Positions 37,001 to 60,569 of a DNA stretch of 64,000 bases are shown one piece after another. Numbering within the stretch: position 1 is the first letter of the stretch; the number at the start of each line of letters is the position of its first letter. A program made the translations under genes and the position numbers. The DNA lies in the IMG/VR virus record IMGVR_UViG_3300043467_001216; one strand, given 5' to 3'. The notes under the pieces were generated by a model, which saw only the letters and a list, made by a program, of their open reading frames with translations, did not search any database and was not told the origin of the DNA. The DNA is from a virus (Duplodnaviria; Heunggongvirae; Uroviricota; Caudoviricetes).

Positions 37001-37678
37001 GAAGACAAAAAATATATAGAAATCTTTAACAAATACTCTAAAAACGCGGTTGATATTGAAGGTATCAAATTTACGTTGATAGGTATCAATAACCCTGGTG
37101 TTGGAAACCAATTAATCAACGAACAATTGGTGTTTAGAATGTCAAATGTAGATGATTTATCTTATAATATATTTTCGTTAGTTGAATTAATTCGGGATAA
37201 AGTTCTAAAGTTTAACAGGTTATTTAGTTTGGGGAATTTTGGTTTTGATGAAATTGAAATTGAAAATGCTGATGGAGTTTACATTGGTAAAGGTGATAAT
37301 GTGGGGGAATTAATTAGTGGTGTGTTTGAGAATACTACAAAATTAAAAACACACAAATATTACTCAACTGATTATGGTCAAGAAGTGGTAGATGTGTTTA
37401 TGGTTAAACACATTTCATTTAAATATGAAATGGATGGTGACTTTATTAGATTTGTGAATAAAGTAAGACCAATTAAAGCTTATGTTGTTGGGGTTAATTC
37501 AAGACAACCTGTTGGTGAACTTGACCTTGAAGATGCTGAATATGTGTATCAGGAAGGTTTTACTGGTTCGTATGAGGAAACTGAATTGAATTATACTAAG
37601 ATGGATTACCTTGATTTTCCTAAAAGGTTTATGGATGGAGATTTCCAATCAACTTATGTCTATACCGATTTCTTATAA
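36998..37678 (+). CDS. hypothetical protein
   Basis: start at ATG inside the conserved 15-mer; the track N-terminal extension runs through the terminator. Confidence 0.6.
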   Translation: MEDKKYIEIFNKYSKNAVDIEGIKFTLIGINNPGVGNQLINEQLVFRMSNVDDLSYNIFSLVELIRDKVLKFNRLFSLGNFGFDEIEIENADGVYIGKGDNVGELISGVFENTTKLKTHKYYSTDYGQEVVDVFMVKHISFKYEMDGDFIRFVNKVRPIKAYVVGVNSRQPVGELDLEDAEYVYQEGFTGSYEETELNYTKMDYLDFPKRFMDGDFQSTYVYTDFL

Positions 37679-37705
37679 AAAAACCCCCAAGATAGGGGGT
37701 TTTTC
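37677..37705. terminator. bidirectional rho-independent terminator
   Basis: A-run, CCCCC-aagata-GGGGG, T-run; between convergent genes. Confidence 0.85.
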
Positions 37706-38314
37706 TTATTTGATATCAGTTGATTCTAATAATGTGTAACTAAATTTGTTACCGTGAATTTTAAGTGCTTTTTTACAGATTTTCATAAACTCGTTAAAGT
37801 CTTTAACTCTTTTGAATACTTGACATCCTTCAGACCAGTTTTCAACCCAAGTAGAATCTGTTCCTGCTTTATGGATGTTAATACCAAACATACCTTCATC
37901 AATTAAAGTCTCTTCGAATATTAAATCTTTATTAGCGTCTCTCCATACTTTTACTTTCGCCAATCTTTGACAAAGAGCTTCGTATTTTCCTTGATGTAAA
38001 TCAACCGCCCAAGTAGTTCTATATTGATTTGGAACTAATCTAGCAACACCTTTTTTATTGTGGAATTGTTGAACTCCTTTTTTACCTGGGTCACAGGTTG
38101 CGTTCCAGCAATAGAATTGCCAAACACCTTTCTCATCTTTAAATGAAATTGTGATATGGTCATCAAATACGTTAGTTACTTTTTTAGCAACTGATGGTGC
38201 GTTGTTTCTAACACCAACGATATTAACATCATAACTTTTATTTGATTTGTCCTCAAACCACACATAACCTTTAGCTTTTAAAGCTGATTCAATCTGTTCT
38301 CTTGTATAAGACAT
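37706..38314 (-). CDS. putative peptidoglycan-active enzyme (endolysin candidate; S-x-G-C motif)
   Basis: NIVGVRN, CDPG, GINIHKAG and WSEGCQVF resemble a phage cell-wall hydrolase family with a YkuD-like SxGC motif; by eye only. Confidence 0.5.
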   Translation of the reverse strand: MSYTREQIESALKAKGYVWFEDKSNKSYDVNIVGVRNNAPSVAKKVTNVFDDHITISFKDEKGVWQFYCWNATCDPGKKGVQQFHNKKGVARLVPNQYRTTWAVDLHQGKYEALCQRLAKVKVWRDANKDLIFEETLIDEGMFGINIHKAGTDSTWVENWSEGCQVFKRVKDFNEFMKICKKALKIHGNKFSYTLLESTDIK

Positions 38315-38463
38315 AATTTAAATTTTTTTGTTTATTTAATTATAAATATGTAGTCGGTTATATTTATTGGTTTAAAAACCCCCGAACTAATGGAAGATAT
38401 TATTGAAGAATTTGAAGAATTTGGTGACCACCTTATTTGTTCTTTTTAAGAGTGGTTATTGAT

Positions 38464-38631
38464 ATGGATGAAACTATTGGAAAATTGATTAAGAAGATAA
38501 TTGATAAACAATTAAACTCGCCGCGGTGTGGCGAGTATTCATCTCAAATTGATTATGATAAAATCATAAAAGATTTAAAGAAATTGAAAAAACGGTTGAG
38601 TTCTGGTATGGTTATTGATGATGATAAGTAA
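38464..38631 (+). CDS. small hypothetical protein
   Basis: start at ATG in GGTTATTGATATG (partial copy of the 15-mer motif). Confidence 0.4.
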   Translation: MDETIGKLIKKIIDKQLNSPRCGEYSSQIDYDKIIKDLKKLKKRLSSGMVIDDDK

Positions 38632-38739
38632 AACTTATATTATGATACACAATACCGAAGCCATATTACAAACAACATTAGGTTCTGTTGTTATTTTAGT
38701 TGTAATCACACAATTGATTGTTAGTAAAGTGAAGGGGAA

Positions 38740-39237
38740 TTAAATTGGTTTAACATCACGGTTGTAAATACCCCAATCATCCATTGAACCATCTAAATGG
38801 TCCTGACTCATTTCTTGACCACTAAATAAATCTAACGCACCATCATATTCTAATTCCTTAAATAGATTAATAGCGTCGGAACTATCACCATACGACTCAA
38901 TTTCTTGTGAGTATTCAGTTCTCATTATAATACTTTCAACAACCCAATATGGTACTTGATAAGTATTATATTGAGGTTCAATTAAATTATCGTAATCTTC
39001 GTTTGCTAAACTATCGTCGTTTAATTTAATAAAATTAACAATGTATGATGTGTCAAGTCTTAAATCATCAGATTTAATACCAAATAATTTAAGTAATTTA
39101 CTAACTTGATTTAATATATCACCATATTCGATATAATCAAACTCACGGTCTAAGATATTTTCAAGTAAATCTGTGGTTTTATAAAAACGTTTAACAATCG
39201 CGTGTCTTAATTTTTCGGGTTGTTCTCCTAATCTCAT
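38740..39237 (-). CDS. hypothetical acidic protein
   Basis: 165-aa minus-strand ORF. Confidence 0.6.
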   Translation of the reverse strand: MRLGEQPEKLRHAIVKRFYKTTDLLENILDREFDYIEYGDILNQVSKLLKLFGIKSDDLRLDTSYIVNFIKLNDDSLANEDYDNLIEPQYNTYQVPYWVVESIIMRTEYSQEIESYGDSSDAINLFKELEYDGALDLFSGQEMSQDHLDGSMDDWGIYNRDVKPI

Positions 39238-39310
39238 AATGTTAAATTTATATGTATAAATAGTTGAGTTGTATAATAAATTTAGTTACCTTTATTAAAA
39301 AGAAAATTAT

Positions 39311-39526
39311 ATGCAAACATTAGTATTTAACACAACAACAAAAACTGCAAAACTTTATGAAGGTATTGCGGAAAGTACAACCCTAATCGCTCACTACACT
39401 GACGTTCCAACTGTGAAAGTTATGGATGATGGGTATTACCAAGTAATGCAAAGAGACGCATTAGAAAAACAATTACCTGTATTAAGAGTTCCAATCGCAA
39501 ACACAAATATGTTTATTAAAGAGTAA
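39311..39526 (+). CDS. hypothetical protein
   Basis: 71-aa ORF. Confidence 0.5.
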   Translation: MQTLVFNTTTKTAKLYEGIAESTTLIAHYTDVPTVKVMDDGYYQVMQRDALEKQLPVLRVPIANTNMFIKE

Positions 39527-39837
39527 TGAAATCAATCGGTCAAATTTTTAGAAGTAATAGACAATTAATGGATGAACCTGAAGTTCAGGTGTTAATAGAA
39601 TATTGCCGTGAATTGGAAGGGCAAGTTATGGATAGAAAGATTGATGATAATTACGATAAGGAACACGTTCTACGTAGTATGTTAAAGGACATTAGAACAG
39701 GTATTGATGACACATTAAAAGACGACGAGGAATCAATCAGGTTCAATGAAACACCAAGAGTTGATTTCAAAGATGCTATGTTGAATTTGAAAAAATTCCT
39801 TGCCGAAATGTGTTTAATTAACAAAATTATTTTATGA
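39526..39837 (+). CDS. hypothetical protein
   Basis: TAATG coupling. Confidence 0.55.
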   Translation: MKSIGQIFRSNRQLMDEPEVQVLIEYCRELEGQVMDRKIDDNYDKEHVLRSMLKDIRTGIDDTLKDDEESIRFNETPRVDFKDAMLNLKKFLAEMCLINKIIL

Positions 39838-40220
39838 AGAAAAGAGTTTATTTAGTCGATATTGATGGGACTATCTGTGATGATATAAAGAATGAAGAGA
39901 GTCATTTATATCCTGACGCTAAAGTATATGATGGTGCTTTAGAAGAATTAAATAAGTTGTATGATGAAGGTAATATAATTACATTCTTCACTGCCAGAGA
40001 AAGTAAAGACCGTGAGGTTACGGAAAAGTGGTTGAACGATAATGGGTTCAAGTATCACGGATTAATCACTGATAAACCAAGAATCAAAGATGCTCAGGAG
40101 TATGTTTGGATTGATAACATTCCAATCAGAGGTATTACCTATAAAGGTAAGTGGTCACCAATCATTGAGAAACAATTATTCTGTGATGAGGTGAAATCAA
40201 TGTTGATGTTTAAGAAATGA
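39834..40220 (+). CDS. HAD-superfamily phosphatase
   Basis: N-terminal VYLVDIDGTICDD (DxDGT nucleophile motif); FFTARE. Confidence 0.7.
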   Translation: MKKRVYLVDIDGTICDDIKNEESHLYPDAKVYDGALEELNKLYDEGNIITFFTARESKDREVTEKWLNDNGFKYHGLITDKPRIKDAQEYVWIDNIPIRGITYKGKWSPIIEKQLFCDEVKSMLMFKK

Positions 40221-40247
40221 AAAAAGGGGTCTAATTCGACCCCTTTT
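40221..40247. terminator. bidirectional terminator
   Basis: A-run, GGGGTC-taattc-GACCCC, T-run. Confidence 0.8.
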
Positions 40248-40566
40248 CAATTGGAATTACTTTTACTCTGATACGTCCCACTTGGTGGTTTGCTAACTTG
40301 CCAAATGATTTTTTACTTAAATCAATTCTGTTTTGTGATTTATTACCCATCCTATCGGTAATTTCAACAGTGTCTGATTTATTGTTTGATAAGTTAACAA
40401 CGATTGCTTTTGAACGTAGTGGTAAGTAATTGTAAGCTGCCGTCGAATATTCTCTATGAACTTTTGGATGTCCTGTTGTATCATACCAAGTTGCGGTGTG
40501 AACGTCAGGTTGAGTGTTCGTTAGTGAGGTTAATGACAGACATAATAAAATAAATATTACTCTCAT
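40231..40566 (-). CDS. secreted RlpA-like double-psi beta-barrel protein
   Basis: signal peptide MRVIFILLCLSLTSL; ATWYD..G...AAY..LPL.S...V.NL.N.KS..V.ITDR....IDLS...F..L pattern. Confidence 0.65.
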   Translation of the reverse strand: MRVIFILLCLSLTSLTNTQPDVHTATWYDTTGHPKVHREYSTAAYNYLPLRSKAIVVNLSNNKSDTVEITDRMGNKSQNRIDLSKKSFGKLANHQVGRIRVKVIPIEKGSN

Positions 40567-40610
40567 AGTGTATAAGTATACGTATAATCTTGACAAAAGG
40601 AAACCATTGA

Positions 40611-40625
40611 GTATTTATTAATAAA
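40611..40625 (+). promoter_or_regulatory. GTATTTATTAATAAA motif
   Basis: 8 nt before ATG 40634. Confidence 0.45.
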
Positions 40626-40633
40626 AATCTGAT

Positions 40634-41836
40634 ATGAAACATAAAATAATGATTACTGAATCTCAGTATAAAAAATTATTGAGGGGTATTAATGAACAAC
40701 AGAATAAAAATTTTTCACCTCAGTTAAGTTTTGGGCGTAAATCAGCACCTTGGTTGAGTGCAATTTTTGGAAATAAGCAAGATGGTTATACTATTTATTT
40801 ACCACAGTCAATAAAAACTGAAGAAGTTAACAGTCTTATTAGTGACGATGAAGTTAAAGAGTTAAATAAAAGTGGGTATGGGCAAAGATTATCTTATCAA
40901 TTGGGTGAACGTAACGGAAGTCATTTTATGGGTACAATGAGACAAATAAACCCAAAATACCGAGCTCTAATAATTAAAACGTATCAAATGCTTATTGAAA
41001 GTGGGGTTAAAAATCCGAAACTTAAATTTGAGAGAACTGAAAAAACAACAACAACTAAACCAACAGGTGAACCTGGAGGTGAAATACCGTTTACTAAAAA
41101 GTTTCCTGTTAAAGATGATTTAAAAAGTGAAAAATATTTTGTTGATAATAGTTGGGCGTTAGATATACAATTTGTTACAAAATTTAGAGAAACTACCCTT
41201 AAAAATATTAAAGATGAATTGTCAAATACACCTAACGGTCAAGGTGTTTTAAATGGAATCACAGTTAGAACATCTTGTTCAACATTACCTAATGGTAAAT
41301 CACCTGATGGTAAAGTTCACACATTTGCTGAATTATCTAAATTAAGAAACAAATCGGCAAAAGATTTTGTTCTTAAAGAATTACAATCAATTGGGGTTAA
41401 GATATCACCTGAATTAATTTATGAAGATGATTGGGAAGGTGGTCTTACGGGTAAATATTTAGGGGCGTCAAGTAACAGTGGTAATATTTGGGGTCAACCT
41501 GGAGCGTCAAAAAACACTGATGATTATGAACAGGATAAATATTTAGAAATTGCCTTAGATTTGGTTATTTCAGGTAAGAGAAAAATCCCTATTGACCCAA
41601 CTAATGAGGATGGAACGAAAAATGTTAGTTATGATTATGTTGCGGCATTTTATGTTCCTGATATTCCACGTACTATACCAACTATTGACCTTGCTTGGGT
41701 TTGGAATCCAAAAACCCAATCTAAATGTAAAATTGGTGAACCAAATACTCAAATGAAATGTGAAACTTGGGGTGAAGGTCCTAAAGATTGGTCAACCAAT
41801 ATGAAAGGTAAAATTCATTGGGGAACTGAAGATTAA
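40634..41836 (+). CDS. hypothetical protein
   Basis: 400-aa ORF; N-terminus MKHKIMITESQYKKLLRGI. Confidence 0.65.
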   Translation: MKHKIMITESQYKKLLRGINEQQNKNFSPQLSFGRKSAPWLSAIFGNKQDGYTIYLPQSIKTEEVNSLISDDEVKELNKSGYGQRLSYQLGERNGSHFMGTMRQINPKYRALIIKTYQMLIESGVKNPKLKFERTEKTTTTKPTGEPGGEIPFTKKFPVKDDLKSEKYFVDNSWALDIQFVTKFRETTLKNIKDELSNTPNGQGVLNGITVRTSCSTLPNGKSPDGKVHTFAELSKLRNKSAKDFVLKELQSIGVKISPELIYEDDWEGGLTGKYLGASSNSGNIWGQPGASKNTDDYEQDKYLEIALDLVISGKRKIPIDPTNEDGTKNVSYDYVAAFYVPDIPRTIPTIDLAWVWNPKTQSKCKIGEPNTQMKCETWGEGPKDWSTNMKGKIHWGTED

Positions 41837-41840
41837 TAAA

Positions 41841-41867
41841 AAAAGGGAGATAATACTCCCTTTTTTT
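41841..41867. terminator. bidirectional terminator
   Basis: A-run, GGGAG-ataata-CTCCC, T7. Confidence 0.85.
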
Positions 41868-42423
41868 ATTTACAACGAATTACTATGTGAATGGTTGAGT
41901 CTTCAAGAGTGAATCCAAAACCAAATTCTTTGTATTTTTCGTCAAGTAATATTGACATATGTGGTTTAGATGCTACAAAGATATCGAAGATACATTCAGA
42001 TACTAATTTATTGAAGTCACCATCAGTTTTTTTGATTAGTGTGAACGTTTCGATAGGTAACATACTAATACATTCGGCACCTTTAGTTATCTTATCGTGA
42101 CAGTACTTCTTTACTAATTTTTTAGAGTATTTTTGACAATCAATGGTTAATTGTTTGTCTTCAACAACTGAACATTTACCATAGTCATTTCTGAATTCAT
42201 TGAATGATTCAAACAAATATGATTTTATTTTGTTAGTGTCTATTTTTGAATTAACTGAGTCTAAGTAGTCATATCTAAAACTAACTAAACCGTTTATTGG
42301 TTGAACAACTGAAGTTTTACTGTTGAAGTCAAATAACCATACTTTAGAGTGTAGTTTGTAACCACTTTGAGCGTTAACGTTTAACGTTACTAAGATTGTC
42401 AATATCAAGATTAATGTTTTCAT
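41866..42423 (-). CDS. secreted protein
   Basis: signal peptide MKTLILILTILVTLNVNAQ; several Cys. Confidence 0.65.
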   Translation of the reverse strand: MKTLILILTILVTLNVNAQSGYKLHSKVWLFDFNSKTSVVQPINGLVSFRYDYLDSVNSKIDTNKIKSYLFESFNEFRNDYGKCSVVEDKQLTIDCQKYSKKLVKKYCHDKITKGAECISMLPIETFTLIKKTDGDFNKLVSECIFDIFVASKPHMSILLDEKYKEFGFGFTLEDSTIHIVIRCK

Positions 42424-42484
42424 AGTATGATGTGTTTGTCTTATAAAAATACAATAATTATTCTTTACTCAAACAATTTCTTGA

Positions 42485-42499
42485 ATATTTATTAATAAA
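42485..42499 (+). promoter_or_regulatory. ATATTTATTAATAAA motif
   Basis: identical to 18828; 8 nt before ATG 42508. Confidence 0.5.
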
Positions 42500-42507
42500 C
42501 TTTTAGA

Positions 42508-44172
42508 ATGAGAAATATATTAGCCGAACAAATTAGTAAGATGCAATCTATGATGGGTATTCAAGATGACTTACTACTTGAAGCTTCGAAATTAAAAATA
42601 TTAACAGACAAAGAAGGTTTAGACCAAGACCAAGCGGAATTACTTGATGAGTTATGCGGTGGGTTATCGGTTTGGATGTTAAGTAAGATAAAAGATTTCC
42701 AAAGAGAAACGGCTAGAATTAGAAATATGGAGGATTTATCCGATAAAGCAATGATTAATTTAATAAATGTCAATGGGTTAACTAGTAGGATAAGACCAAA
42801 CATTATTAATGTTATGGATTGGGTTCGAGTTGGGTTGAATAGTAATGTTAAACCATTTAAAAACTTAACATTACAAGAGTTAGATAAGAAAGCTAAGGAA
42901 TGGCACGAATCATTGAGTATTGGTCAAGGTGATATTAATTATGTTGAGAAAAATGACATAATTAAAGACTTCCGTGATGAAAATGGTAATGGGTTTTATT
43001 GGGCTGACTTGAATACTAAGGATTCGAAGGAAGAGTCTGAAAGAATGGGTCACTGTGGTCGTTCAAATTATGGGTATATATATTCATTAAGAGAAACAAA
43101 ACCTATTAATGATAAATTCAAAATCAATAGAAGTCATTTAACAACCGCAATTGGACATGATGGTATTATGTATCAATTAAAAGGTCCTAAGAACTCTAAA
43201 CCTAAAGAAGAATACCATAACTACATTTTACCATTGTTTTATGTGTTAGGTGGTGAAGGTGAAGAAGATGATTATTTAGTTAAAGGATTTGGAACCGAAT
43301 ACGCGTCACAACAGGATTTCAAATTAAGTGACTTACCTGATGATGTTATCAGAGAGTTATATCGAAATAGACCTGAATTGTTTGAAGGTAGAGTGATGAT
43401 GAGAAAATTGGTTGATATGGGTATAATTGATGCTCCTAATGTTAACTATAATATTACACTTAATATAGACCCTGATGATGTTACAAGATATGTTGATGGT
43501 GATTACGTTTATAGAAGATATAAGAAAAAGGTTACAACACCTGCGGGTCAAGAATATGAAAGAACTGTTGAAGTTACAATGTTTGAATTAATATTAGCGG
43601 GAGAAACTTGGGATTTATATTATAATGACTATACGGATTGGAGAGATTGTCTTAACTATTACGTAGATGATAAGAATGAACAAGAAATTAGAGAAATTTT
43701 AAGAAAAGTTGCTGAACGTGATGATGATGAATTCATTGCTGAAGATTTTGACGAAATGGATATTGAGGATATTATTGAAGAATATGATGATAATCATAGT
43801 ATACAAAGTGCGTTAGGTAATGCTCAAAGTAACGCTGAAGCGGATGATTACTCTAATTATTTATATGGATTATTAAAAGATGCGTTACAAGAATATGGGA
43901 CAATTGAGAAAATGAATGATGAGGGGGTAATCTTACATATAGATACACAACGATATTTTGATGATGTTCATTCTGATTATCTTGATGAATATTTTGAAAG
44001 ATGTGATGATGATATTGAATGTACCTTTAAGGAACTTGCGTATGAAGGTGAAATTGAAAAACCAAAGTGGGACCCTGATGATAGATGGTATCCAAGCGTT
44101 GATAAAAATAACTATAATGAAATGTTATCCGATTATCTCTACGATGTAAGAAGTGAATATAATGTAAAATAA
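42508..44172 (+). CDS. acidic protein with PcfJ-like motif
   Basis: 554-aa ORF; ERMGHCGRSNYGYIYSLRE...SHLTTAI; D/E-rich C-terminal half. Confidence 0.65.
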   Translation: MRNILAEQISKMQSMMGIQDDLLLEASKLKILTDKEGLDQDQAELLDELCGGLSVWMLSKIKDFQRETARIRNMEDLSDKAMINLINVNGLTSRIRPNIINVMDWVRVGLNSNVKPFKNLTLQELDKKAKEWHESLSIGQGDINYVEKNDIIKDFRDENGNGFYWADLNTKDSKEESERMGHCGRSNYGYIYSLRETKPINDKFKINRSHLTTAIGHDGIMYQLKGPKNSKPKEEYHNYILPLFYVLGGEGEEDDYLVKGFGTEYASQQDFKLSDLPDDVIRELYRNRPELFEGRVMMRKLVDMGIIDAPNVNYNITLNIDPDDVTRYVDGDYVYRRYKKKVTTPAGQEYERTVEVTMFELILAGETWDLYYNDYTDWRDCLNYYVDDKNEQEIREILRKVAERDDDEFIAEDFDEMDIEDIIEEYDDNHSIQSALGNAQSNAEADDYSNYLYGLLKDALQEYGTIEKMNDEGVILHIDTQRYFDDVHSDYLDEYFERCDDDIECTFKELAYEGEIEKPKWDPDDRWYPSVDKNNYNEMLSDYLYDVRSEYNVK

Positions 44173-44175
44173 TTT

Positions 44176-44205
44176 AAACCCCCAGGTAAAATTGGGGGTT
44201 TTTTA
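44176..44205 (+). terminator. rho-independent terminator
   Basis: CCCCCA-ggtaaaat-TGGGGG followed by T6. Confidence 0.85.
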
Positions 44206-44229
44206 TTTGGTAGATGTTTGGATATGTAT

Positions 44230-44237
44230 TATATTTG
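44230..44237 (+). promoter_or_regulatory. Bacteroidetes-type -7 box
   Basis: TATATTTG 17 nt before ATG 44255. Confidence 0.45.
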
Positions 44238-44254
44238 TTAAAAATGTAACGGAT

Positions 44255-44560
44255 ATGAGAAAAGTAGTTTTATTAGGGTTGTTAGTTTTGGGGGTGGTGT
44301 CTTGTAAAAAAGAAGATAAAGTATTAATGAAGTATGCCTACATCACTCAGGACAACGTAGACTATAAAAACGAGAAAGGTTACGGTGTTATAACAACACA
44401 CTTATGTCCGGTAGATAAGTCAGTATCTTCTGTAGATATTGAGAACGAGAGAAGTAATCAAAAATACTTAACTGAAATGAAAGGTAAAGAAATATTGGCT
44501 GACACCTTGGTTGATATTAATTCTGATGTTACCAAAATTTTATTTAGTAGATTAAAATAA
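44255..44560 (+). CDS. lipoprotein
   Basis: MRKVVLLGLLVLGVVSC lipobox; the track start at 44192 runs through the terminator. Confidence 0.6.
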   Translation: MRKVVLLGLLVLGVVSCKKEDKVLMKYAYITQDNVDYKNEKGYGVITTHLCPVDKSVSSVDIENERSNQKYLTEMKGKEILADTLVDINSDVTKILFSRLK

Positions 44561-44566
44561 TATTTA

Positions 44567-44574
44567 TACATTTG
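44567..44574 (+). promoter_or_regulatory. Bacteroidetes-type -7 box
   Basis: TACATTTG 17 nt before ATG 44592. Confidence 0.4.
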
Positions 44575-44591
44575 TAAAAACGATAAGAGTT

Positions 44592-44744: not shown

Positions 44745-44749
44745 TAGAT

Positions 44750-45082: not shown

Positions 45083-45085
45083 GAT

Positions 45086-45622
45086 ATGCAAAACAGGGCT
45101 AAAACAGGTATTGAATTTGAAAACTTAGTTCAAGTTGATGGTTGGGTGAAAAAAACCAAATCACCAAGAATGAAGTGGAGTGGTAAAGGTAGAACTATAT
45201 TCGACAAGATTAAGTCGGTAGATTACGACCCAACTCGTTTTATCTTGGACGAGACGGTTGAGATTAGTAAATATGATATCTTTCACCCTGAAACAAAAAG
45301 ATATCGTGAGGTAAAGAAATATAATAAAGACACGTTTAATGGTTGGTTATTATATTCTGAACCGTATTTTAAAATGGCTTCGAAACATTTTTTACATAAA
45401 ATAAATGTTGAAGATTATAATAACTTTGTTGAGGAGTTTTATAATCATAATCTTAATACCGGTTTATTTGATAGAGTTATCAAATTGATAAATGAAAAAA
45501 GTGAGGGGATTAGGGTTGTTGATGGGTTTATACCCAAGGAAGAGTTAGAGTTTAGAACAATTATTGATAGAAACAATTGGATGGGTTATTATAGAATTAC
45601 TATTCAAGTAAAAAGAAAGTGA
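45086..45622 (+). CDS. hypothetical protein (possible PD-(D/E)xK nuclease fold)
   Basis: GIEFENLV near N-terminus and YDIF...REVKK; weak. Confidence 0.55.
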   Translation: MQNRAKTGIEFENLVQVDGWVKKTKSPRMKWSGKGRTIFDKIKSVDYDPTRFILDETVEISKYDIFHPETKRYREVKKYNKDTFNGWLLYSEPYFKMASKHFLHKINVEDYNNFVEEFYNHNLNTGLFDRVIKLINEKSEGIRVVDGFIPKEELEFRTIIDRNNWMGYYRITIQVKRK

Positions 45623-45623
45623 T

Positions 45624-46222: not shown

Positions 46223-46577
46223 TGCCAAGCCAATTAACTTTAACTTAGATACTAAACTTAAAACTTATGATGAGTATCTTAAAGATAACTTCTTCTATAA
46301 GTTTGGTGAGGTGTTTAGAACCTTAGTCGGGACTAAATTTATGTGTTACGAAGGTGATGAATTAATTACTAAAACAATTAAGGAAATCAAGTTCAACGCT
46401 GATATAGTATACGATGAGGTCCGTAAAGAATATGTTGATAAGAAAAACAAATTTGTTGCTTTACACGAGTTACCAATGCCGAATGATTACACAGGATATA
46501 AATTGTTTATGTTTGTAATTAGTGATGACGACATTCAATATAATTTTAGTGAAATTTATTTAAAACCTGAGAAATGA
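46209..46577 (+). CDS. hypothetical protein
   Basis: start moved to ATG 46209 (14-nt overlap, as at other junctions). Confidence 0.55.
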   Translation: MKNLDAKPINFNLDTKLKTYDEYLKDNFFYKFGEVFRTLVGTKFMCYEGDELITKTIKEIKFNADIVYDEVRKEYVDKKNKFVALHELPMPNDYTGYKLFMFVISDDDIQYNFSEIYLKPEK

Positions 46578-46735
46578 GAAGAGTTAAAATCCCCATTGAT
46601 GCGGCAGTCAAGGTAATACCTGAGATTGCTAACATAGGTAGTTTACCAAGAAAGAAAAAGAAACAAATGAAAAAGTACTTTGATAAAGTCTTTATGGATA
46701 AATTTTATAAATGGTTAGAAAATGGAAAACGATAA
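46574..46735 (+). CDS. small basic protein (53 aa)
   Basis: ATGA overlap; below track cutoff. Confidence 0.3.
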   Translation: MRRVKIPIDAAVKVIPEIANIGSLPRKKKKQMKKYFDKVFMDKFYKWLENGKR

Positions 46736-46940
46736 ATATGATAAAATGTTGGAGCGTTTAATTGAGGATGCTTTAAAATATGGTTCAGGTTTGGAGGCGG
46801 CTATAGACCATCTTAATCTGGGTTTTGTTCATCTGTATAGACATTTAAATGGTGATGATAAACAAAATCTGTTACAAGACTTACAGGAGTATAATGAAAA
46901 ACTAAAAAAGATATTAGTGGATGAAGGAGATAGCGTTTAG
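46722..46940 (+). CDS. hypothetical protein
   Basis: 72-aa ORF. Confidence 0.5.
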   Translation: MENDKYDKMLERLIEDALKYGSGLEAAIDHLNLGFVHLYRHLNGDDKQNLLQDLQEYNEKLKKILVDEGDSV

Positions 46941-47100
46941 TATTGGTGGTTTGTTGGTATTCTTAACTGTTATATTAATGGTTAATTATTCTTTGAGATT
47001 AAAAAGTTTTGGGTTCGATAATAAGAAGTATTTTAATTTTTTAGTATATTTGTTATTCGTAGAAATGTTATTATTAGGAATCAGTCAAATTATACTTTAA
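46921..47100 (+). CDS. small membrane protein (59 aa)
   Basis: two hydrophobic helices; below track cutoff. Confidence 0.35.
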   Translation: MKEIAFSIGGLLVFLTVILMVNYSLRLKSFGFDNKKYFNFLVYLLFVEMLLLGISQIIL

Positions 47101-47104
47101 GATT

Positions 47105-47359
47105 ATGGCAGCAATTACAATGAGTGAGGTGAAGATAGGTAGAACAACATATCCTGTTAAGAGTGGTGATTATATTTTATATAATGGTGCTTGTTATCAG
47201 TTTATAGCTGGTGATGGTAGAACTTTGAAACAAGAAGGTTTTACCGGTTATAGTAATTTGAAAATGCCTATGACATTAATTAAGAAAATACCGTTCATCA
47301 GAATGACAAAAGTTAGTTTCAATAAAAATGGGGTGGATTTAGTAAAATGGTATTTCTAA
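47105..47359 (+). CDS. hypothetical protein
   Basis: 84-aa ORF. Confidence 0.5.
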   Translation: MAAITMSEVKIGRTTYPVKSGDYILYNGACYQFIAGDGRTLKQEGFTGYSNLKMPMTLIKKIPFIRMTKVSFNKNGVDLVKWYF

Positions 47360-47685
47360 ATATAAGGATTACCAAACTCTTTTAAACTATTAAACATATC
47401 TTCGATACGTTTACATTCTTTAATGAAGTTAGATGCAATCTCAGGGGGTAATTGGAACCATTCAGTTCCCCCTTCCAACAAATACTTAAAGTAATCTCGT
47501 TTCATTACCGTTTCAATTTTTGTGTAGTATTCTGATTGGTGTTTACGTAGTAAGACTAACTCGTGAGGGTTTGAAGTCTGATGGGCTTTTAGTCTTAATT
47601 GGGGGTCATTTTTTGAGATACCGATTTTATATCGTTCAGGTTCGGAACCCCATTCAACTATTAGATATACATAACCATAATCCAT
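47356..47685 (-). CDS. T5orf172/GIY-YIG-like domain protein
   Basis: GYVYLIVEW....YKIGISKNDPQLRLKAHQTSNPHEL......EWFQL pattern. Confidence 0.65.
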   Translation of the reverse strand: MDYGYVYLIVEWGSEPERYKIGISKNDPQLRLKAHQTSNPHELVLLRKHQSEYYTKIETVMKRDYFKYLLEGGTEWFQLPPEIASNFIKECKRIEDMFNSLKEFGNPYI

Positions 47686-47720
47686 ATGGTTAAATGTAAA
47701 TCAAGGGGATTTTAAGTAAA

Positions 47721-48191
47721 TTATTCTTCCTTTCTTATGAATTTTATTTTATTAACATCAATATCAACACTACCCATATATTCAGGGTCTAATTCACCAT
47801 TATAGTACATTTTTGTGTAGAATTTATATTCTTTTGGTAAATATCTGTGATACTTGTTAAGTTGTTTTTTTAAGTCAAAATAGTCCTTAAAACAAGGTCT
47901 GTTTTCAAAACCATCCATTGATGAGTATTGTAGTGGTGCACATAAAGAATAACCAGTCCTCATAAATTCATATTCACTAAAATAGCTAATTACAGGTACT
48001 TTAAAATAATCAGATAATTTATCAACATCTACTATAATATCAATACCAACTATTGTTGAATATCTATTAGGTTCATTATCGGTAAATTCCCAACCAACAA
48101 TATACGGGTATTTTTTATGAATTGTTTTAAGCAACATATCAATACCTTTTAATTGGTTTTCGGTTGGTTCATCTCTAAAAATCTTGAACAT
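47721..48191 (-). CDS. hypothetical protein
   Basis: 156-aa minus-strand ORF. Confidence 0.6.
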   Translation of the reverse strand: MFKIFRDEPTENQLKGIDMLLKTIHKKYPYIVGWEFTDNEPNRYSTIVGIDIIVDVDKLSDYFKVPVISYFSEYEFMRTGYSLCAPLQYSSMDGFENRPCFKDYFDLKKQLNKYHRYLPKEYKFYTKMYYNGELDPEYMGSVDIDVNKIKFIRKEE

Positions 48192-48226
48192 ACAAATAAA
48201 TAGTTTTGTTTTTAAAATTAAAAAGT

Positions 48227-48234
48227 TATCTTTG
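48227..48234 (+). promoter_or_regulatory. Bacteroidetes-type -7 box
   Basis: TATCTTTG 19 nt before ATG 48254. Confidence 0.45.
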
Positions 48235-48253
48235 TTCTATAAATATATCACTT

Positions 48254-48493
48254 ATGAGAAAGACGTGTAATGTAGTTGAAATGTTAGAATACGCAAATAT
48301 GCAATTGGCTAGAACTGATGAGTTTGCAACTAAAGATTTTAAAGTCGGTATTAGTGTAATGATTGAACATATATTACACTTAACAGGTAATTATTCAGGG
48401 TTTATGTTTATTAATAACGAAGATTCTGACACAGGAACGTTAGGTTATTACAGTAGATATTATTTTACTAACAGAAAATTGGAGAAAAAATGA
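48254..48493 (+). CDS. hypothetical protein
   Basis: start moved from TTG 48206 to ATG 48254. Confidence 0.5.
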   Translation: MRKTCNVVEMLEYANMQLARTDEFATKDFKVGISVMIEHILHLTGNYSGFMFINNEDSDTGTLGYYSRYYFTNRKLEKK

Positions 48494-48867
48494 CATACGA
48501 TGAAATGAAAGAGTTTTTGGAGTCCATTGGTGGACTTGAAAATGGGTTTTTTACTGACAGACCCCCAATCACTGACCCACATTTTTTTGGTGTTAAGGAA
48601 GGTTGGTATCAATTAATCAAAGACTTGATTGTGGACCTAAATGAAATGGGTTGGGATAAACAGGTGATGCAAGTTAAAGAGAAATTTGGTGGGTTAAGAT
48701 TCTATGTGAATTCACATATTGAAAATGATGATTTACACAATAGAGTATTCAAAGCAGAAAAAGATAGTTATAAAATTTGTGAAGTATGTGGGGAACCTGG
48801 TAGAGTAAGAAATAACGGGTGGTATATGACCTTATGTTATTCACACAGAAGAGAAGGAGACGATTGA
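48490..48867 (+). CDS. hypothetical protein with C-terminal CxxC..C.H cluster
   Basis: ATGA overlap; CEVCGEPG....LCYSH. Confidence 0.6.
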   Translation: MTYDEMKEFLESIGGLENGFFTDRPPITDPHFFGVKEGWYQLIKDLIVDLNEMGWDKQVMQVKEKFGGLRFYVNSHIENDDLHNRVFKAEKDSYKICEVCGEPGRVRNNGWYMTLCYSHRREGDD

Positions 48868-49272
48868 ATGAAAAAGGTTAGTTTTGATTATGATGGAACA
48901 TTGGCATTACCCGCAGTGGAGGAGTTTGCTAAGGAGTTAGTGGACCAAGGTTATGATGTTTGGGTGGTCACTTCAAGAGTGGGTGATGACAATTTAGATA
49001 AGTCATTCCAACCTTGGAAATCACCTGATTGGAATAAAGATTTGTGGGACACTTGTTTAAATGTGGGTATACCTAAAAGTAAAGTTGTATTCACAAGTTT
49101 TGTGGATAAGATTGAATTTTTAAAAGGAAAGAATTATATTTTTCATTTAGATGATGATTTGTATGAGTTAACCGCAATTATGGAATCCAAAGATGGTTGT
49201 ATGCCATTGAATGTTGGTCACTCAGATTGGAAAAGAAATTGTTTAGAAGAATTAGAAAAACATAAAATATGA
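48868..49272 (+). CDS. HAD-superfamily hydrolase
   Basis: VSFDYDGTLA (DxDGT motif). Confidence 0.6.
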   Translation: MKKVSFDYDGTLALPAVEEFAKELVDQGYDVWVVTSRVGDDNLDKSFQPWKSPDWNKDLWDTCLNVGIPKSKVVFTSFVDKIEFLKGKNYIFHLDDDLYELTAIMESKDGCMPLNVGHSDWKRNCLEELEKHKI

Positions 49273-49634
49273 AAAAAAACAGACGTAGAGCGGTCCACGC
49301 TGAGTTAATTAGAGAAAGTAGAGATAACCCAGGTTATTTCAGGTATAACATTACCATCAGGGAAAAAGATGGAATGGAACACATAGTTCCTGCTTATGGT
49401 AAAGATATGCAAGATGCGATTGAAAGATTGTTATGGAATGAACGTGTTGGTAAGGTAACCAAATCAAAAATAATGGCACCAAGTTTTGCTATATTATTAC
49501 TTGCCGTTGTTGCATTATCAGGTATGACGGGTGTAATCTACGACAATCCATTATGGGTTGCTGGTGGTCTTGGATTTTGTGGTGTTTCATTATTATTAAC
49601 ATCATTGGTGGATAAATATTTAAATAGAAAATAA
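49269..49634 (+). CDS. membrane protein
   Basis: two C-terminal hydrophobic helices. Confidence 0.55.
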   Translation: MKKNRRRAVHAELIRESRDNPGYFRYNITIREKDGMEHIVPAYGKDMQDAIERLLWNERVGKVTKSKIMAPSFAILLLAVVALSGMTGVIYDNPLWVAGGLGFCGVSLLLTSLVDKYLNRK

Positions 49635-49635
49635 T

Positions 49636-49872
49636 ATGACAAGTAGAGATTTTGCGTTTTGGTTGCAAGGATTCTTTGAAGTTGCAAACCCAATTTCTAT
49701 CGGTTCAAAAGAAACTGAAATGATTAAGAGACATTTAAATCTTGTTTTCAAACACGAGATTGACCCGGCAATGGGTGATGAAAAACACCAACAAGTGTTG
49801 AATGAAATTCATACACCAAGTAAATGGCCGTCAACATTTTCAAATCCTGATAAAGAAATATTACGTTGTTGA
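49636..49872 (+). CDS. hypothetical protein
   Basis: 78-aa ORF. Confidence 0.5.
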   Translation: MTSRDFAFWLQGFFEVANPISIGSKETEMIKRHLNLVFKHEIDPAMGDEKHQQVLNEIHTPSKWPSTFSNPDKEILRC

Positions 49873-49874
49873 TT

Positions 49875-50063
49875 ATGAGTGAATTTGAATTACCTAATTA
49901 TACTACATCAGAGTGTAGTGATGGACCTAAGTCAGGTGCTGTTGTATTAAAAGAGTTCGTTGTTCGATGGGATTACAATGGTGATGGTAGTATCACCGTA
50001 TCATTGAATAATAGTGACGATAAACTAATCCAAAGTTTGGAACATACAAAATCAAAAGTATGA
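49875..50063 (+). CDS. hypothetical protein
   Basis: start moved to ATG 49875. Confidence 0.45.
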   Translation: MSEFELPNYTTSECSDGPKSGAVVLKEFVVRWDYNGDGSITVSLNNSDDKLIQSLEHTKSKV

Positions 50064-50320
50064 GAATTGATTATTTAACGGAGAATTTTGAAGGTGAAGA
50101 TTTTTTGGTTGCGGATGGTTTTGACGATGCCATTATTGGTGTTGACGAAAATAGTATGAGAATTATATATTCTGTGACTAAATCCATTGAAATTTTAATG
50201 AAAGAAAATATGACATATGAAGAAGCTAATGAGTATTTTTACTTTAATGTTAGTGGTTCTTATGTTGGTGATAAGACACCGATTTGGTGTTACGATAATT
50301 GTTTAACAAACCAAAACTGA
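50060..50320 (+). CDS. hypothetical protein
   Basis: ATGA overlap. Confidence 0.5.
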   Translation: MRIDYLTENFEGEDFLVADGFDDAIIGVDENSMRIIYSVTKSIEILMKENMTYEEANEYFYFNVSGSYVGDKTPIWCYDNCLTNQN

Positions 50321-50324
50321 TATT

Positions 50325-50474
50325 ATGTTAGAACTAGTAAAAATAAGTCACAACGCTGATAAAGCAACTGCGATTAGACTAATATCGCAAACATTGGAAA
50401 ATTATGGGTTAGTGGTTAAAGTCCACGAGATTAATGATGAAGAAACGGTATATTCAATTGATGTTTTAAAATAA
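50325..50474 (+). CDS. small hypothetical protein (49 aa)
   Basis: below cutoff; fills the gap. Confidence 0.3.
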   Translation: MLELVKISHNADKATAIRLISQTLENYGLVVKVHEINDEETVYSIDVLK

Positions 50475-50480
50475 AAAAGT

Positions 50481-50750
50481 ATGGGTATTTCAATTCACGT
50501 TGATTTAGATGAGGTTTACGACCAAATGGATTCTTGGGATAAAAAAGAAATGGTTAGTTTCCTTCGTCATGATGGTTATTTAACTGAGGAAAAAACACCT
50601 ATTAATGAAGGTGTTAGAATAGAAATACCATTGGATGCGACATTTGAACAGGAACAACATTTAAGGATGATTTCAAAGTTAGGTGGATTATTTTATCGTA
50701 TCAGTGATGAGGATATGGAAATAATTCGTAATATTGTAAAAAAGTATTAG
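50481..50750 (+). CDS. hypothetical protein
   Basis: 89-aa ORF. Confidence 0.5.
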   Translation: MGISIHVDLDEVYDQMDSWDKKEMVSFLRHDGYLTEEKTPINEGVRIEIPLDATFEQEQHLRMISKLGGLFYRISDEDMEIIRNIVKKY

Positions 50751-50754
50751 TGTT

Positions 50755-50976
50755 ATGAAGAAAAAAGATTTCAAATTCAATACAAAAGAACGTAAGTCAG
50801 TTAACGCAGACTTAAATGATTTCTGTTATTTGGCAAAACCTCACGACTTCATTGAAGTTACTGATTGGTCCAATCTTGATGGTTATGATATCACATTAAA
50901 TGATAAACATATCTCATTAACAAGAGGTGAGTTGGATGCAATTAAAGCGTTAGTTAAAAAATTAAATAAATTATGA
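50755..50976 (+). CDS. hypothetical protein
   Basis: 73-aa ORF. Confidence 0.5.
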   Translation: MKKKDFKFNTKERKSVNADLNDFCYLAKPHDFIEVTDWSNLDGYDITLNDKHISLTRGELDAIKALVKKLNKL

Positions 50977-51458
50977 ACTTATACGAAACATATCTTAATA
51001 CTAAATCATCAGGTTCAGTTGAAGATAGAATTGAGGTGATGAACGACATCATCAGACAAAATCCTAAGTTAATGGATTATATTGAAACCAAGATTGATTC
51101 CTGTTATGGGACTCACATTGTTTACTTGGTTAATATGAGGGTTAACGGTGAAGATATGTTGAAGATAGGTTATACCAAGAATTCTGTTGATGGTAGATTT
51201 GGTGAACATAGATATGCCGGTAGAGATAGTTTGGAGATTGTTGAGAAAATCCGAGAAGGTAAGTTACAAGCCAAAGGTGCGATTGAGTTTGAGAAATCAC
51301 TAAAAGAGAAGTTTAAAGACTTCAAAATCACGACTGATTTAACACTACCTGGTAAAGGTGAATTTTATGACATCGTATTCTATGATGAAATGATAAGGAT
51401 ATACGACGAAGAATATCCCAAATTTATAAATGTTATCGGTTTAAAGTCCCCTAATTAA
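50973..51458 (+). CDS. T5orf172-like domain protein
   Basis: HIVYLVNM......LKIGYTKNSVDGRFGEH........GEFYDI. Confidence 0.55.
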   Translation: MNLYETYLNTKSSGSVEDRIEVMNDIIRQNPKLMDYIETKIDSCYGTHIVYLVNMRVNGEDMLKIGYTKNSVDGRFGEHRYAGRDSLEIVEKIREGKLQAKGAIEFEKSLKEKFKDFKITTDLTLPGKGEFYDIVFYDEMIRIYDEEYPKFINVIGLKSPN

Positions 51459-51467
51459 TGTTAGGGG

Positions 51468-51482
51468 ATATTTATTTATATG
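51468..51482 (+). promoter_or_regulatory. ATATTTATTTATATG motif containing the start codon
   Basis: preceded by hairpin CCCCTAA-ttaatg-TTAGGGG. Confidence 0.45.
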
Positions 51483-52028
51483 AAAGTTATAATTACGGAA
51501 TCTAATTTAAAATATGTGATATTCAGATATTTTGATAATCAAAAAAGTAAAGGTCAACAACCTTATGTAAGTAGTAGACTGTATAAATTATTTAAAAGTG
51601 ATGAAGACACTTTGTTGGATTACTTATTTGATTACCTTGGTGGTAGAGACGGTGCTACTGAGGTTGCTAAAAAAATGTTAAAAGAATTACCTGATAGGAT
51701 TAAAATAAATGATGCACAATTTGAGGGTGAGTTTTATTATTCAATCTATGATGTAGGTAGTGAGATTAACCCATATGATGGTTATTTACCTGTGTTTATA
51801 GATTGTTATGGTGATGTTAATGGTGCTCCTGTATGGAATGATGATAATGGAGATTACGATTATATTGATACTACATTATATGATTGGTATTCGGAGTTGG
51901 ATATGACTGAAGGTTGGGAAGTAAAAGATACTTTTGTTTCAGATATTAATGGTCAATTTTTTGATTTGATAACACGATATACGGGTGTACCAATTAATGT
52001 TGAAGGATTCTCAGTAATTGATGGATAA
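51480..52028 (+). CDS. hypothetical acidic protein
   Basis: N-terminus MKVIITESNLKYVI. Confidence 0.6.
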   Translation: MKVIITESNLKYVIFRYFDNQKSKGQQPYVSSRLYKLFKSDEDTLLDYLFDYLGGRDGATEVAKKMLKELPDRIKINDAQFEGEFYYSIYDVGSEINPYDGYLPVFIDCYGDVNGAPVWNDDNGDYDYIDTTLYDWYSELDMTEGWEVKDTFVSDINGQFFDLITRYTGVPINVEGFSVIDG

Positions 52029-52032
52029 AAAA

Positions 52033-52058
52033 TAAACCCCCTTAATTGGGGGTTTTTT
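52033..52058. terminator. bidirectional terminator
   Basis: A-run, CCCCC-ttaatt-GGGGG, T6. Confidence 0.85.
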
Positions 52059-52059
52059 G

Positions 52060-52581
52060 TTATAGTTTACATAGAAGAATATCGTTGAATTTATATTGGG
52101 GAGTTCCTTCAGTTTCAAGGATGTCAATTCTATTAACATATCGTTTATTCATTGTGTCGGTTACTTTATACACACCTGATTTTTTACCAGCATTAGTAAT
52201 CAAAACCTCATCACCATAATCAAATTGACCTCCCCATCTTTTTAATAAGTTACGACTCATAGCAATCCATTTATGTTGACTTGCTTTCTTTGGGTTTATC
52301 TTATACATTCCCGCAGTTACCAATGGGTCCTTATCACATTGTTTGATTACCGGGTAATACATTGTTGCGGTTAAATGTTTCAAAACCTTTTTACTTTTCT
52401 TCAAGGTTTTAAACTGCATAGTTACCTCAACTGATTTAGGTTTCTCAACCTTAACAACTTTTTGTGTTTTGTGTTTTTCATTTAATTCCTTGGCTAAGTT
52501 CATCATATAGACTACATAGGAATGGTAATACATACCTAACACTAAAATAATTGCCGATTTAAAAAGTTCTTTCACATTCAT
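52060..52581 (-). CDS. 3D-domain (MltA/RlpA-like DPBB) cell-wall protein
   Basis: N-terminal TM helix; TATMYYPVIKQCDKDPLVTA....IAMSRNLLKRWGG.F.YGDEVLI......GVYKVTDTMNKRY..RIDIL. Confidence 0.65.
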   Translation of the reverse strand: MNVKELFKSAIILVLGMYYHSYVVYMMNLAKELNEKHKTQKVVKVEKPKSVEVTMQFKTLKKSKKVLKHLTATMYYPVIKQCDKDPLVTAGMYKINPKKASQHKWIAMSRNLLKRWGGQFDYGDEVLITNAGKKSGVYKVTDTMNKRYVNRIDILETEGTPQYKFNDILLCKL

Positions 52582-60371: not shown

Positions 60372-60389
60372 CTGACAATAAAACTTTGG

Positions 60390-60556: not shown

Positions 60557-60569
60557 CTAAAAATAAGAT

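Follow-up and report, generated by a model that had tools for sequence, protein, structure and literature searches.

Opposite-strand genes for putative wall- and envelope-directed proteins end in convergent-junction hairpins in a Caudoviricetes phage

Why should a phage that codes densely on one strand place single genes on the other, each beside a terminator, and are such genes recent arrivals? The question is raised by the 64,000-nucleotide (nt) stretch of IMG/VR record IMGVR_UViG_3300043467_001216 (Caudoviricetes; hereafter the window), a region of about 30% GC with dense coding on the plus strand. Four reading frames are open on its minus strand, ORF1 (37706-38314), ORF2 (40231-40566), ORF3 (41866-42423) and ORF4 (52060-52581). 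An independent gene caller, on a near-identical public contig, calls ORF1 to ORF3 identically (202, 111 and 185 amino acids); the public-contig locus stops short of 52060-52581. A reading made earlier from the sequence only had taken the four for terminator-bracketed, moron-type insertions that encode secreted or wall-active proteins. On balance, we find it somewhat more probable that they are lineage-resident opposite-strand wall and envelope genes whose ends are marked by hairpins generic to convergent junctions.

A hairpin does stand at each of the four genes, as the sequence-only reading had it. A perfect GC-rich stem, with an A-run on its 5' side and a T-run on its 3' side, folds on both strands (-13.8 to -18.1 kcal/mol). 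These bidirectional terminators are located at 37679-37704, between the plus-strand gene ending at 37678 and ORF1 (-15.5 / -18.1 kcal/mol); at 40222-40247, between the plus-strand gene ending at 40220 and ORF2 (-15.5 / -17.5 kcal/mol); at 41838-41867, between the plus-strand gene ending at 41836 and ORF3 (-16.3 / -17.0 kcal/mol, z -6.7 / -6.0); and at 52034-52055, between the plus-strand gene ending at 52028 and ORF4 (-13.9 / -13.8 kcal/mol). The relatives used for comparison are the contigs 3300008261_000100 (loci L001/L081, about 93% nucleotide identity), 3300044700_000299 (L007/L082), 3300042868_008486 (186 kb; L006/L103, about 78%) and 3300027797_000050 (L091). The stem at 37679-37704 is kept in relatives and its loop varies; the second hairpin is conserved in L092 and L093, the third in L089-L091, and the fourth, again with a variable loop, in L081, L082 and L103. 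The description of the genes as "bracketed" does not hold. There is one terminator per gene, at the 3' end only, and it is common to the gene and to the convergent plus-strand gene, the 5' side being a divergent intergenic region. Bidirectional intrinsic terminators are known at convergent gene pairs in bacteria, and those found here share with them the GC stem, the flanking A-run and T-run, the position between two converging stops and the ability to end both transcripts. Nothing sets the phage hairpins apart as unusual; the one at 40222-40247 overlaps the last codons of ORF2.

Does the hairpin belong to the gene or to the junction? We scored perfect hairpins after the stop of the ORF1 homologue in 80 IMG/VR loci, most of which have unrelated neighbours. 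Such a hairpin is present in 36 of 42 convergent cases versus 1 of 36 co-directional ones; L039, one of the six convergent exceptions, has a hairpin that contains a G-U pair. Within the window, hairpins are found at 5 of 9 convergent junctions versus about 11 of 111 other junctions (p 0.002). The fifth bidirectional terminator, of the same type, lies at 14711-14738, at the convergent junction of 14425-14712(+) and 14742-15548(-), and the product of the latter gene has no envelope signature. At the four convergent junctions that lack a hairpin the stops overlap or there is no clear gap. The same hairpin type also occurs at about nine junctions between co-directional genes, and the interval 36-54 kb holds 17 terminator-like sites versus 5.8 +/- 2.6 in shuffles. 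The hairpin is these phages' generic ending for converging transcripts; it tracks convergence, not the gene, and is not a mark of insertion.

The genes themselves appear stable. ORF1 to ORF3 could be compared in four contigs (L001, L007, L006, L091) and ORF4 in three (L081, L082, L103), and wherever the fetched stretch of a syntenic relative includes one of the four genes, that gene has the position and orientation it has in the window; this holds down to about 70-78% nucleotide identity. By these comparisons the four are putatively long-resident, stable genes of the lineage, and what changes seems to be alleles or modules, exchanged at conserved divergent promoter regions.

Such an exchange is seen in the mosaic block 40673-42328, which comprises the body of the plus-strand gene 40634-41836, the common terminator and the mature part of ORF3. 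The window and its closest relative, L001, are 93% identical up to 40672 and again from 42329, with no blastn match between; L007 has only a weak 76% match over the last ~150 nt of the block. Both relatives are otherwise 89-93% identical to the window, whereas L006 and L091, at 78%, align through the block, and the amino-acid identities across 40673-42328 agree with this nucleotide pattern. ORF3 homologues whose mature domain is 37-58% identical have a signal peptide 83-100% identical, and those whose mature domain is 73-82% identical have a signal peptide just 44-67% identical, a discordance that indicates recombination at the junction of the two parts. From the alignment and the ORF3 comparison together it follows that the moved unit is the convergent gene pair and not the single gene. 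The breakpoints fall just inside the 5' ends of both paired genes, beside two motif-bearing divergent regions. Plus-strand genes are mosaic too (45086-45622), so mosaicism is not special to the minus-strand genes.

What do the four genes encode? Each of the four products could plausibly be directed at the wall or the envelope, and the domain guesses made at the outset seem right or nearly so. ORF1 (202 amino acids) has no hydrophobic N-terminus and no signal peptide and is predicted to be a cytoplasmic protein with a YkuD-like-fold Cys/His domain, a candidate peptidoglycan peptidase or endolysin. The SxGC for which it had been singled out as a peptidoglycan-active candidate belongs to an invariant motif, H...SxGC: H147, S160, G162 and C163 are kept throughout a 47-sequence alignment. 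In YkuD-type enzymes the consensus [S/T]-x-G-C stands about 14-18 residues after the catalytic His, and we take the His...[S/T]xGC of ORF1 to be this signature. An AlphaFold 2 (AF2) model (predicted local distance difference test, pLDDT, 71.5; predicted template modelling score, pTM, 0.72) has the YkuD beta-sandwich fold. ORF1 matches PHROG 3000, of unknown function, and the C-terminal half of PHROG 33083 ('endolysin'), and a structural relative in BFVD is annotated 'Lysin'; it falls in no NCBIfam family and finds no PDB match by sequence. The ORF1-like domain makes up 2593 clusters among 1.8 billion representatives searched (about 2,600 clusters, defined at 50% identity). Several are multi-domain, the domain following SLT (P0328), Glucosaminidase and PG_binding_1 (P0339) or Amidase_2 and LysM (P0376). 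Given these classical modular-lysin architectures, the ORF1-like domain very probably acts on peptidoglycan. Hydrolytic members of the YkuD-fold L,D-transpeptidase superfamily include Csd6, Pgp2, DpaA and Tlde1; ORF1 differs from this superfamily in having neither a Pfam YkuD match nor a signal peptide, and in being a phage-encoded, stand-alone protein of about 200 amino acids with an extra N-terminal subdomain; in other proteins the domain is one module of a multi-domain lysin.

ORF1 is the most conserved gene of the region. It has 7035 homologues, the best 120 of which share at least 79% identity, and they include proteins of the Bacteroides phages DAC16-23, of crAss-like phages, where the gene lies between a PD-(D/E)XK nuclease and TerL, and of the P2-like Pseudoalteromonas phage ACA1. 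ACA1 has two annotated holins and no identified endolysin (PMC10612066). Its ORF1 homologue, gp35, stands among the tail genes, between tube and chaperone, and P2-like phages keep lysis genes among tail genes (PMC10612066). We found no YkuD-type endolysin in crAss-like phages in the literature; among the rare catalytic domains of phage lytic proteins PhaLP already includes YkuD, with 10 cases, and DPBB_1, with 2 (PMC8310338). ORF1 is 78-99% identical across the 80 IMG/VR contigs (L001-L080), and in most of these the flanking 10 kb has no detectable gene in common with the window; the position of ORF1 shifts between contigs, and in L025 and L031 it is near homologues of the Amidase_2 block. Its identity is 90% in L006 versus 67% in L091, though these two are otherwise alike, a discordance akin to that of the mosaic block.

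The other three products have hydrophobic N-termini (Kyte-Doolittle 12-mer means 2.2-2.9) that are kept in homologues. In ORF2 (40231-40566, minus strand, 111 amino acids) a signal-like N-terminus is followed by a single RlpA-type double-psi beta-barrel (DPBB) domain; the start is ATG, and a TTG at 40596 would extend the frame. The match to Pfam DPBB_1 (PF03330; E 1.2e-9, 38.7 bits versus a 28.8-bit cut-off), together with the N-terminus, supports the guess of a secreted RlpA-like DPBB protein, which we retain as a prediction. ORF2 remains below the cut-offs of the RlpA families proper (TIGR00413, 38 versus 82 bits; NF007953, 27 versus 201 bits), and its best PDB match is the RlpA-like PA4485. 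Homologues keep the signal-like N-terminus and a TDRMG...RIDLS motif, including the Asp of R-I-D-L-S, which aligns with the I-D-V-S motif of PA4485. We take this Asp to be the probable equivalent of RlpA D168. RlpA of Pseudomonas aeruginosa requires Asp168, and RlpA of Escherichia coli is inactive because that Asp is a Ser (PMC9712689). ORF2 resembles P. aeruginosa RlpA in a DPBB_1 match above threshold and in conserved Asp motifs; it differs in being just 111 amino acids long, with no canonical lipobox, SPOR domain or expansin-like domain, and it shows no clear cleavage site. P. aeruginosa RlpA is a lytic transglycosylase that acts on denuded glycans (PMC9712689), and an amidase that could yield denuded glycans is encoded in the same window. 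This is the amidase-like ORF 992-1606(+), whose label is upheld by a match to Pfam Amidase_2 (PF01510, E 2.5e-9).

ORF4 (52060-52581, minus strand, 173 amino acids) is predicted to carry an N-terminal transmembrane helix, a K-rich linker and a C-terminal MltA/3D-type DPBB domain. This domain, of 110 residues, is well conserved and has a DPBB fold related to the MltA catalytic domain. The guess of a membrane-anchored 3D-domain protein is in keeping with the predicted helix and with the fold. Pfam 3D is not matched; the '3D domain' label of the family comes solely from Joint Genome Institute (JGI) annotation of homologues, and ORF4 falls in no NCBIfam family. D82, D84, D141 and D152 are invariant in 37 relatives, the last two within the motif DTMN…RIDIL, which is the sole part of ORF4 that aligns with ORF2. 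We rejected the two as paralogues, since hhalign aligns just this 26-residue Asp motif (probability 14%). The first Asp expected of the 3D motif, as in YuiC and MltA, presumably corresponds to the invariant S108-R109. Among enzymes, the nearest relatives by structure are lytic transglycosylases and a tail-hub hydrolase. With MltA and the 3D-domain proteins (YuiC; the tail-hub hydrolases of diffocin and of cyanophage A-1(L)) ORF4 shares the DPBB fold and D-T-x...R-I-D-I with its invariant Asp; unlike them it lacks a Pfam 3D match, has one of three Asp positions apparently replaced, and is small and bitopic, with a conserved Tyr/His-containing transmembrane helix, outside the tail hub. Signal-anchor-release (SAR) and secreted endolysins are known from P1 (Lyz) and phage 21 (R). 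As in SAR endolysins, the wall-directed domain of ORF4 would be held by a moderately hydrophobic N-terminal helix (19-residue Kyte-Doolittle mean 1.39), but the helix is not Gly/Ala/Ser-rich and is followed by a linker of about 40 residues; on this composition we rejected ORF4 as a SAR endolysin, and its release from the membrane would be pure speculation. In cellular genomes, homologues (35-53% identity) turned up in Cytophagales and Flavobacteriales only, which points to a Bacteroidota host.

ORF3 (41866-42423, minus strand, 185 amino acids) begins with a predicted signal peptide, MKTLILILTILVTLNVNAQ, Bacteroidota-style, with the cleavage site ...NVNAQ/S, followed by a divergent CAP/SCP domain of YkwD type. 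The guess that it is secreted accords with the predicted signal peptide, and CAP/YkwD appears to be the finer name. Among its homologues, 20 of 28 match Pfam CAP at E <= 0.1 (best 7.9e-7), two carry a precomputed PF00188 match and some are named YkwD by JGI. The family profile gives weak PDB matches to GAPR-1 and Borrelia BB0689; the sequence by itself finds nothing meaningful in the PDB, and there is no NCBIfam family. H108, E116 and H154 are invariant in the family. These residues, the signal peptide and the Pfam matches of homologues are shared with the CAP/SCP/PR-1 superfamily (YkwD type); the differences are that ORF3 itself is below the Pfam threshold, is phage-encoded, and has a mature domain that is exchanged behind a constant signal peptide.

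Are the four genes transcribed on their own? Their opposite orientation excludes co-transcription with the neighbouring genes, and the blocks upstream of all four are conserved in relatives, so that independent transcription is likely. An AT-rich promoter-like motif, TATTTATAATTAAA, lies at 38335-38348 on the minus strand, 20 nt upstream of the ORF1 start, in a block conserved in five relatives; its putative promoter function is inferred. Two divergent gaps hold a near-palindromic promoter-like motif, TATTTATTAATAAA. One copy, at 40612-40625, separates ORF2 from the gene at 40634 and lies at the left edge of the exchanged block; the other, at 42486-42499, separates ORF3 from the gene at 42508. 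No octamer is more enriched in intergenic DNA than TATAAATA/TATTTATA. A longer near-palindromic AT-rich motif, TATTTATWAATAAA, has 37 matches at <= 2 mismatches versus 10.8 +/- 4.2 expected, and stands 5-28 nt before many starts on both strands, including those of ORF1, 38740, 6613 and 14742; 40612-40625, 42486-42499 and 18829-18842 are among its copies. It contains the T4-late-promoter-like TATAAATA. One promoter class for all four genes was rejected, the upstream blocks of ORF2 and ORF4 being unique in the window and a sigma-70-type scan being at chance (105 versus 107 +/- 12). Bacteroidota-type -33/-7 elements, sought by eye, give a near-match at ORF3 and not at all four genes.

How could these genes work together? 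We infer the following from sequence, as regards transcription units, export, catalysis and a role in lysis alike. The long plus-strand gene train would be broken by short opposite-strand transcription units, four of them single genes, and the hairpin common to a convergent pair would end transcription from either side. ORF1 would be made in the cytoplasm and reach the wall through the holin lesion, where its Cys/His site would cut stem peptides, as the endolysin or as a co-lysin alongside the Amidase_2 protein. ORF2, Sec-exported and soluble in the periplasm, and ORF4, tethered to the membrane, would work on glycan strands from the periplasm, perhaps once the Amidase_2 protein has denuded them; both keep an Asp-containing D-x-M...R-I-D motif. 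ORF3 would be secreted, its mature part swapped between lineages, and this diversifying exchange would fit a part in conflict better than one in lysis.

Several observations weigh against this picture. ORF1 has no Pfam match at E <= 0.1, YkuD and YkuD_2 included, and only 1 of 5 AF2 models is confident (others 43-50), with a catalytic loop of pLDDT < 50. ORF3 scores below the Pfam CAP cut-off (E 0.03, 15.5 bits versus a gathering score of 21.1). None of 37 ORF4 family members matches Pfam 3D (PF06725) at E <= 1, and neither the ORF4 sequence nor the family profile finds a PDB relative. As to transcription, the uniqueness of the upstream blocks of ORF2 and of ORF4 counts here too, and the enriched AT-rich motif is the single basis on which the putative promoters are assigned. 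The remaining points bear on the rival explanations, to which we now turn.

Morons, known from lambdoid and HK97-like phages, are extra genes with their own promoter and terminator, and the four genes had been read as independently transcribed insertions of this type, which would make them recent and host-derived. They do look like morons in being putative single-gene transcription units with a factor-independent terminator, set between genes of longer operons, and each has its own conserved upstream region. L039, a more distant relative, lacks the block 39834-42423, with ORF2 and ORF3; in phages farther removed, ORF1, ORF2 and ORF4 have homologues that run in the direction of their neighbours, in other contexts; and the Bacteroidota homologues of ORF4, at 35-53% identity, make an ancient host origin plausible. 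However, no cellular homologue closer than 53% was found, and the genes are native in composition: their GC is 0.29-0.34 versus 0.321 +/- 0.045 in plus-strand genes, GC at third codon positions (GC3) and codon usage lie inside the plus-strand distribution, and in codon-usage distance they rank between the 53rd and the 92nd percentile of plus-strand genes of like length. All four are syntenically fixed, ORF1, the best conserved in the region, occurs in thousands of phage contigs, and the four-gene block missing from L039 includes two plus-strand genes. Morons bring a terminator with them; here the terminator belongs to the convergent junction and is common with the neighbour. This is moreover a large phage with no temperate sign in the window. 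True presence/absence genes are on the plus strand. One, 44192-44560(+), encodes a lipoprotein and occurs in the window, L006 and L091 but not in L001 or L007; the other, 53060-53818(+), encodes 252 amino acids with no family match and is absent in L081 and L082. As a moron candidate the lipoprotein gene outranks the four minus-strand genes. It has an internal start, MRKVVLLGLLVLGVVSC, and is preceded by its own terminator, at 44176-44201. Taken together, we regard recent insertion of the four genes as highly unlikely, and the moron interpretation finds little support.

Two other accounts, each unlikely and neither as remote as that one, question the function rather than the origin. Orientation could be an accident of mosaicism and the concentration of envelope genes on the minus strand chance, with no functional link between the two. 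Of the region's seven minus-strand genes, three do not encode envelope-directed proteins, and the products of the further credible minus-strand genes of the window, at 6613, 14742 and 29919, are not exported either (a DUF192 protein and unknowns are among them); other opposite-strand singletons in L039 encode acidic cytoplasmic proteins, and in other phages ORF2 and ORF4 have homologues that run in the same direction as their neighbours. By our own crude hydrophobicity criterion, exported products come from 3 of 10 minus-strand and 6-8 of 107 plus-strand genes (one-sided Fisher p 0.03-0.05). The plus strand too encodes lipoproteins and membrane proteins (31427, 44255, 32167); the link between orientation and function is therefore statistically weak, and opposite-strand placement and envelope function may coincide by chance. 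Against mere accident, each of the four genes retains its orientation and its terminator in relatives diverged to about 70% nucleotide identity, which suggests that the arrangement is at least not deleterious and possibly selected, and ORF1 recurs as an opposite-strand singleton with terminator in 36 of 80 loci, mostly in otherwise unrelated neighbourhoods. The second account, about as improbable as the first, accepts export and denies catalysis: ORF2 to ORF4 would be exported binders or modulators at work during infection and not at lysis, such as binders of peptidoglycan or glycan, inhibitors of host autolysins or proteases, or agents of superinfection exclusion. DPBB proteins can be non-catalytic: E. 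coli RlpA is catalytically dead (PMC9712689), and the best fold matches include expansins, kiwellin, cerato-platanin and a papain inhibitor. We know of no muralytic activity established for CAP proteins. The swapping of the ORF3 mature part behind a kept signal peptide is typical of proteins in host-phage or phage-phage conflict, and in ORF4 S108-R109 apparently occupies the first Asp position of the 3D motif. On the other side, ORF2 and ORF4 retain the R-I-D-[LI] Asp that aligns with I-D-V-S of PA4485, presumably the very position that is Ser in the inactive E. coli enzyme, D141 and D152 are invariant in the ORF4 relatives, and the nearest enzymatic structural relatives are lytic transglycosylases and a tail-hub hydrolase. 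Between these accounts, lineage-resident wall and envelope genes ending in convergent-junction hairpins remain the explanation that we favour.

The count of minus-strand genes in 37677-52581 has to be corrected. The four reported ones are at their coordinates, and the real total is seven. The three overlooked genes, all without a terminator, are 38740-39237, encoding an acidic protein of 165 amino acids with no family match that is 30-91% identical across syntenic relatives; 47356-47685, with a T5orf172/MUG113, homing-endonuclease-like product; and 47721-48191, acidic and of unknown function. In two of the three the stop codon overlaps a convergent plus-strand gene. The stop of 38740-39237 overlaps that of 38642-38743(+), a 33-amino-acid frame with one hydrophobic helix (MIHNTEAILQTTLGSVVILVVITQLIVSKVKGN) that is called as a gene in L102, and within 47356-48191 too a stop overlaps the plus-strand gene. 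A second T5orf172/MUG113 gene (GIY-YIG-like, homing-endonuclease-type), 50973-51458(+), is less than 4 kb from 47356-47685, and a homologue in L091 adjoins tRNA-region sequence. Elsewhere on the minus strand, 60271-60429 was rejected as a gene as it overlaps an Rfam tRNA match, and 60801-61115 for its aberrant composition (GC 0.43). The interval 60273-61531 contains three Rfam tRNA matches, two of them unusually long (99 and 114 nt) and not called by ARAGORN; these two could be intron-containing or tRNA-like.

What kind of phage is this? A megablast of 36-54 kb against INPHARED gave no match, and searching the flanking and largest ORFs with PHROG and Pfam yielded almost nothing, so the phage is not typeable by hallmark genes. 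Among contigs that encode an identical copy of the ORF1 protein, the longest measures 310 kb. The window belongs to a large phage with a Bacteroidota host, as judged from the Bacteroidota-style signal peptides, the cellular homologues of ORF4 and the ORF1 homologues in Bacteroides and crAss-like phages. Other genes of the window include a phage SmpB homologue at 30308-30742 (Pfam SmpB on the identical gene in L101), whose neighbour is the DUF192 gene 29919-30260(-) (Pfam E 6.8e-26); a Band_7/SPFH membrane protein at 32167-33069 (Pfam; PHROG 200 'lipoprotein'); a dTDP-sugar isomerase at 34456-34977, identified via L101; a NUDIX hydrolase at 52677-53063; and, at 56483-57196, a probable SIR2 gene, equal in length and position to the SIR2 gene in L103. 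Three successive ORFs of 306-320 amino acids at 23619-26459 reach a GC of 46% versus about 30% elsewhere; one of them weakly matches a tail-fibre-assembly PHROG, and the three may be paralogous fibre-like genes.

How far can these results be taken? In these AT-rich phages of Bacteroidota, an A/T-symmetric hairpin beside an opposite-strand gene denotes a convergent junction and not an insertion, and opposite orientation is therefore unfit as a proxy for accessory status. The ORF3 mosaic illustrates module exchange cleanly, both breakpoints falling a little way inside the 5' ends of two converging genes. With two DPBB proteins and one CAP protein predicted to be exported, such a phage could reveal whether phages remodel the wall from the periplasm before or during lysis. 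Joining all parts gives a broader and more tentative reading, to which we assign rather less than an even chance: ORF1 would represent a widespread family of peptidoglycan peptidases (endolysins) unseen by domain libraries, with a divergent YkuD-like Cys/His fold and about 2,600 clusters at 50% identity, present in freshwater Bacteroidota, crAss-like, Bacteroides and P2-like Pseudoalteromonas phages and supplying the 'missing' ACA endolysin; it would work beside Sec-exported RlpA-like, 3D-like and CAP-like wall proteins that act from the periplasm and, separately, exchange would swap convergent gene pairs at conserved palindromic promoter regions. The unrecognised, widespread lysin-type domain of ORF1, for which the libraries and records checked hold no functional annotation, looks like the most valuable lead. 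If the family is a genuine lysin domain, it would fill an annotation gap in crAss-like, Bacteroides and environmental phages, and in ACA1, and would add a Cys/His L,D-peptidase-type module to the enzybiotic toolbox.

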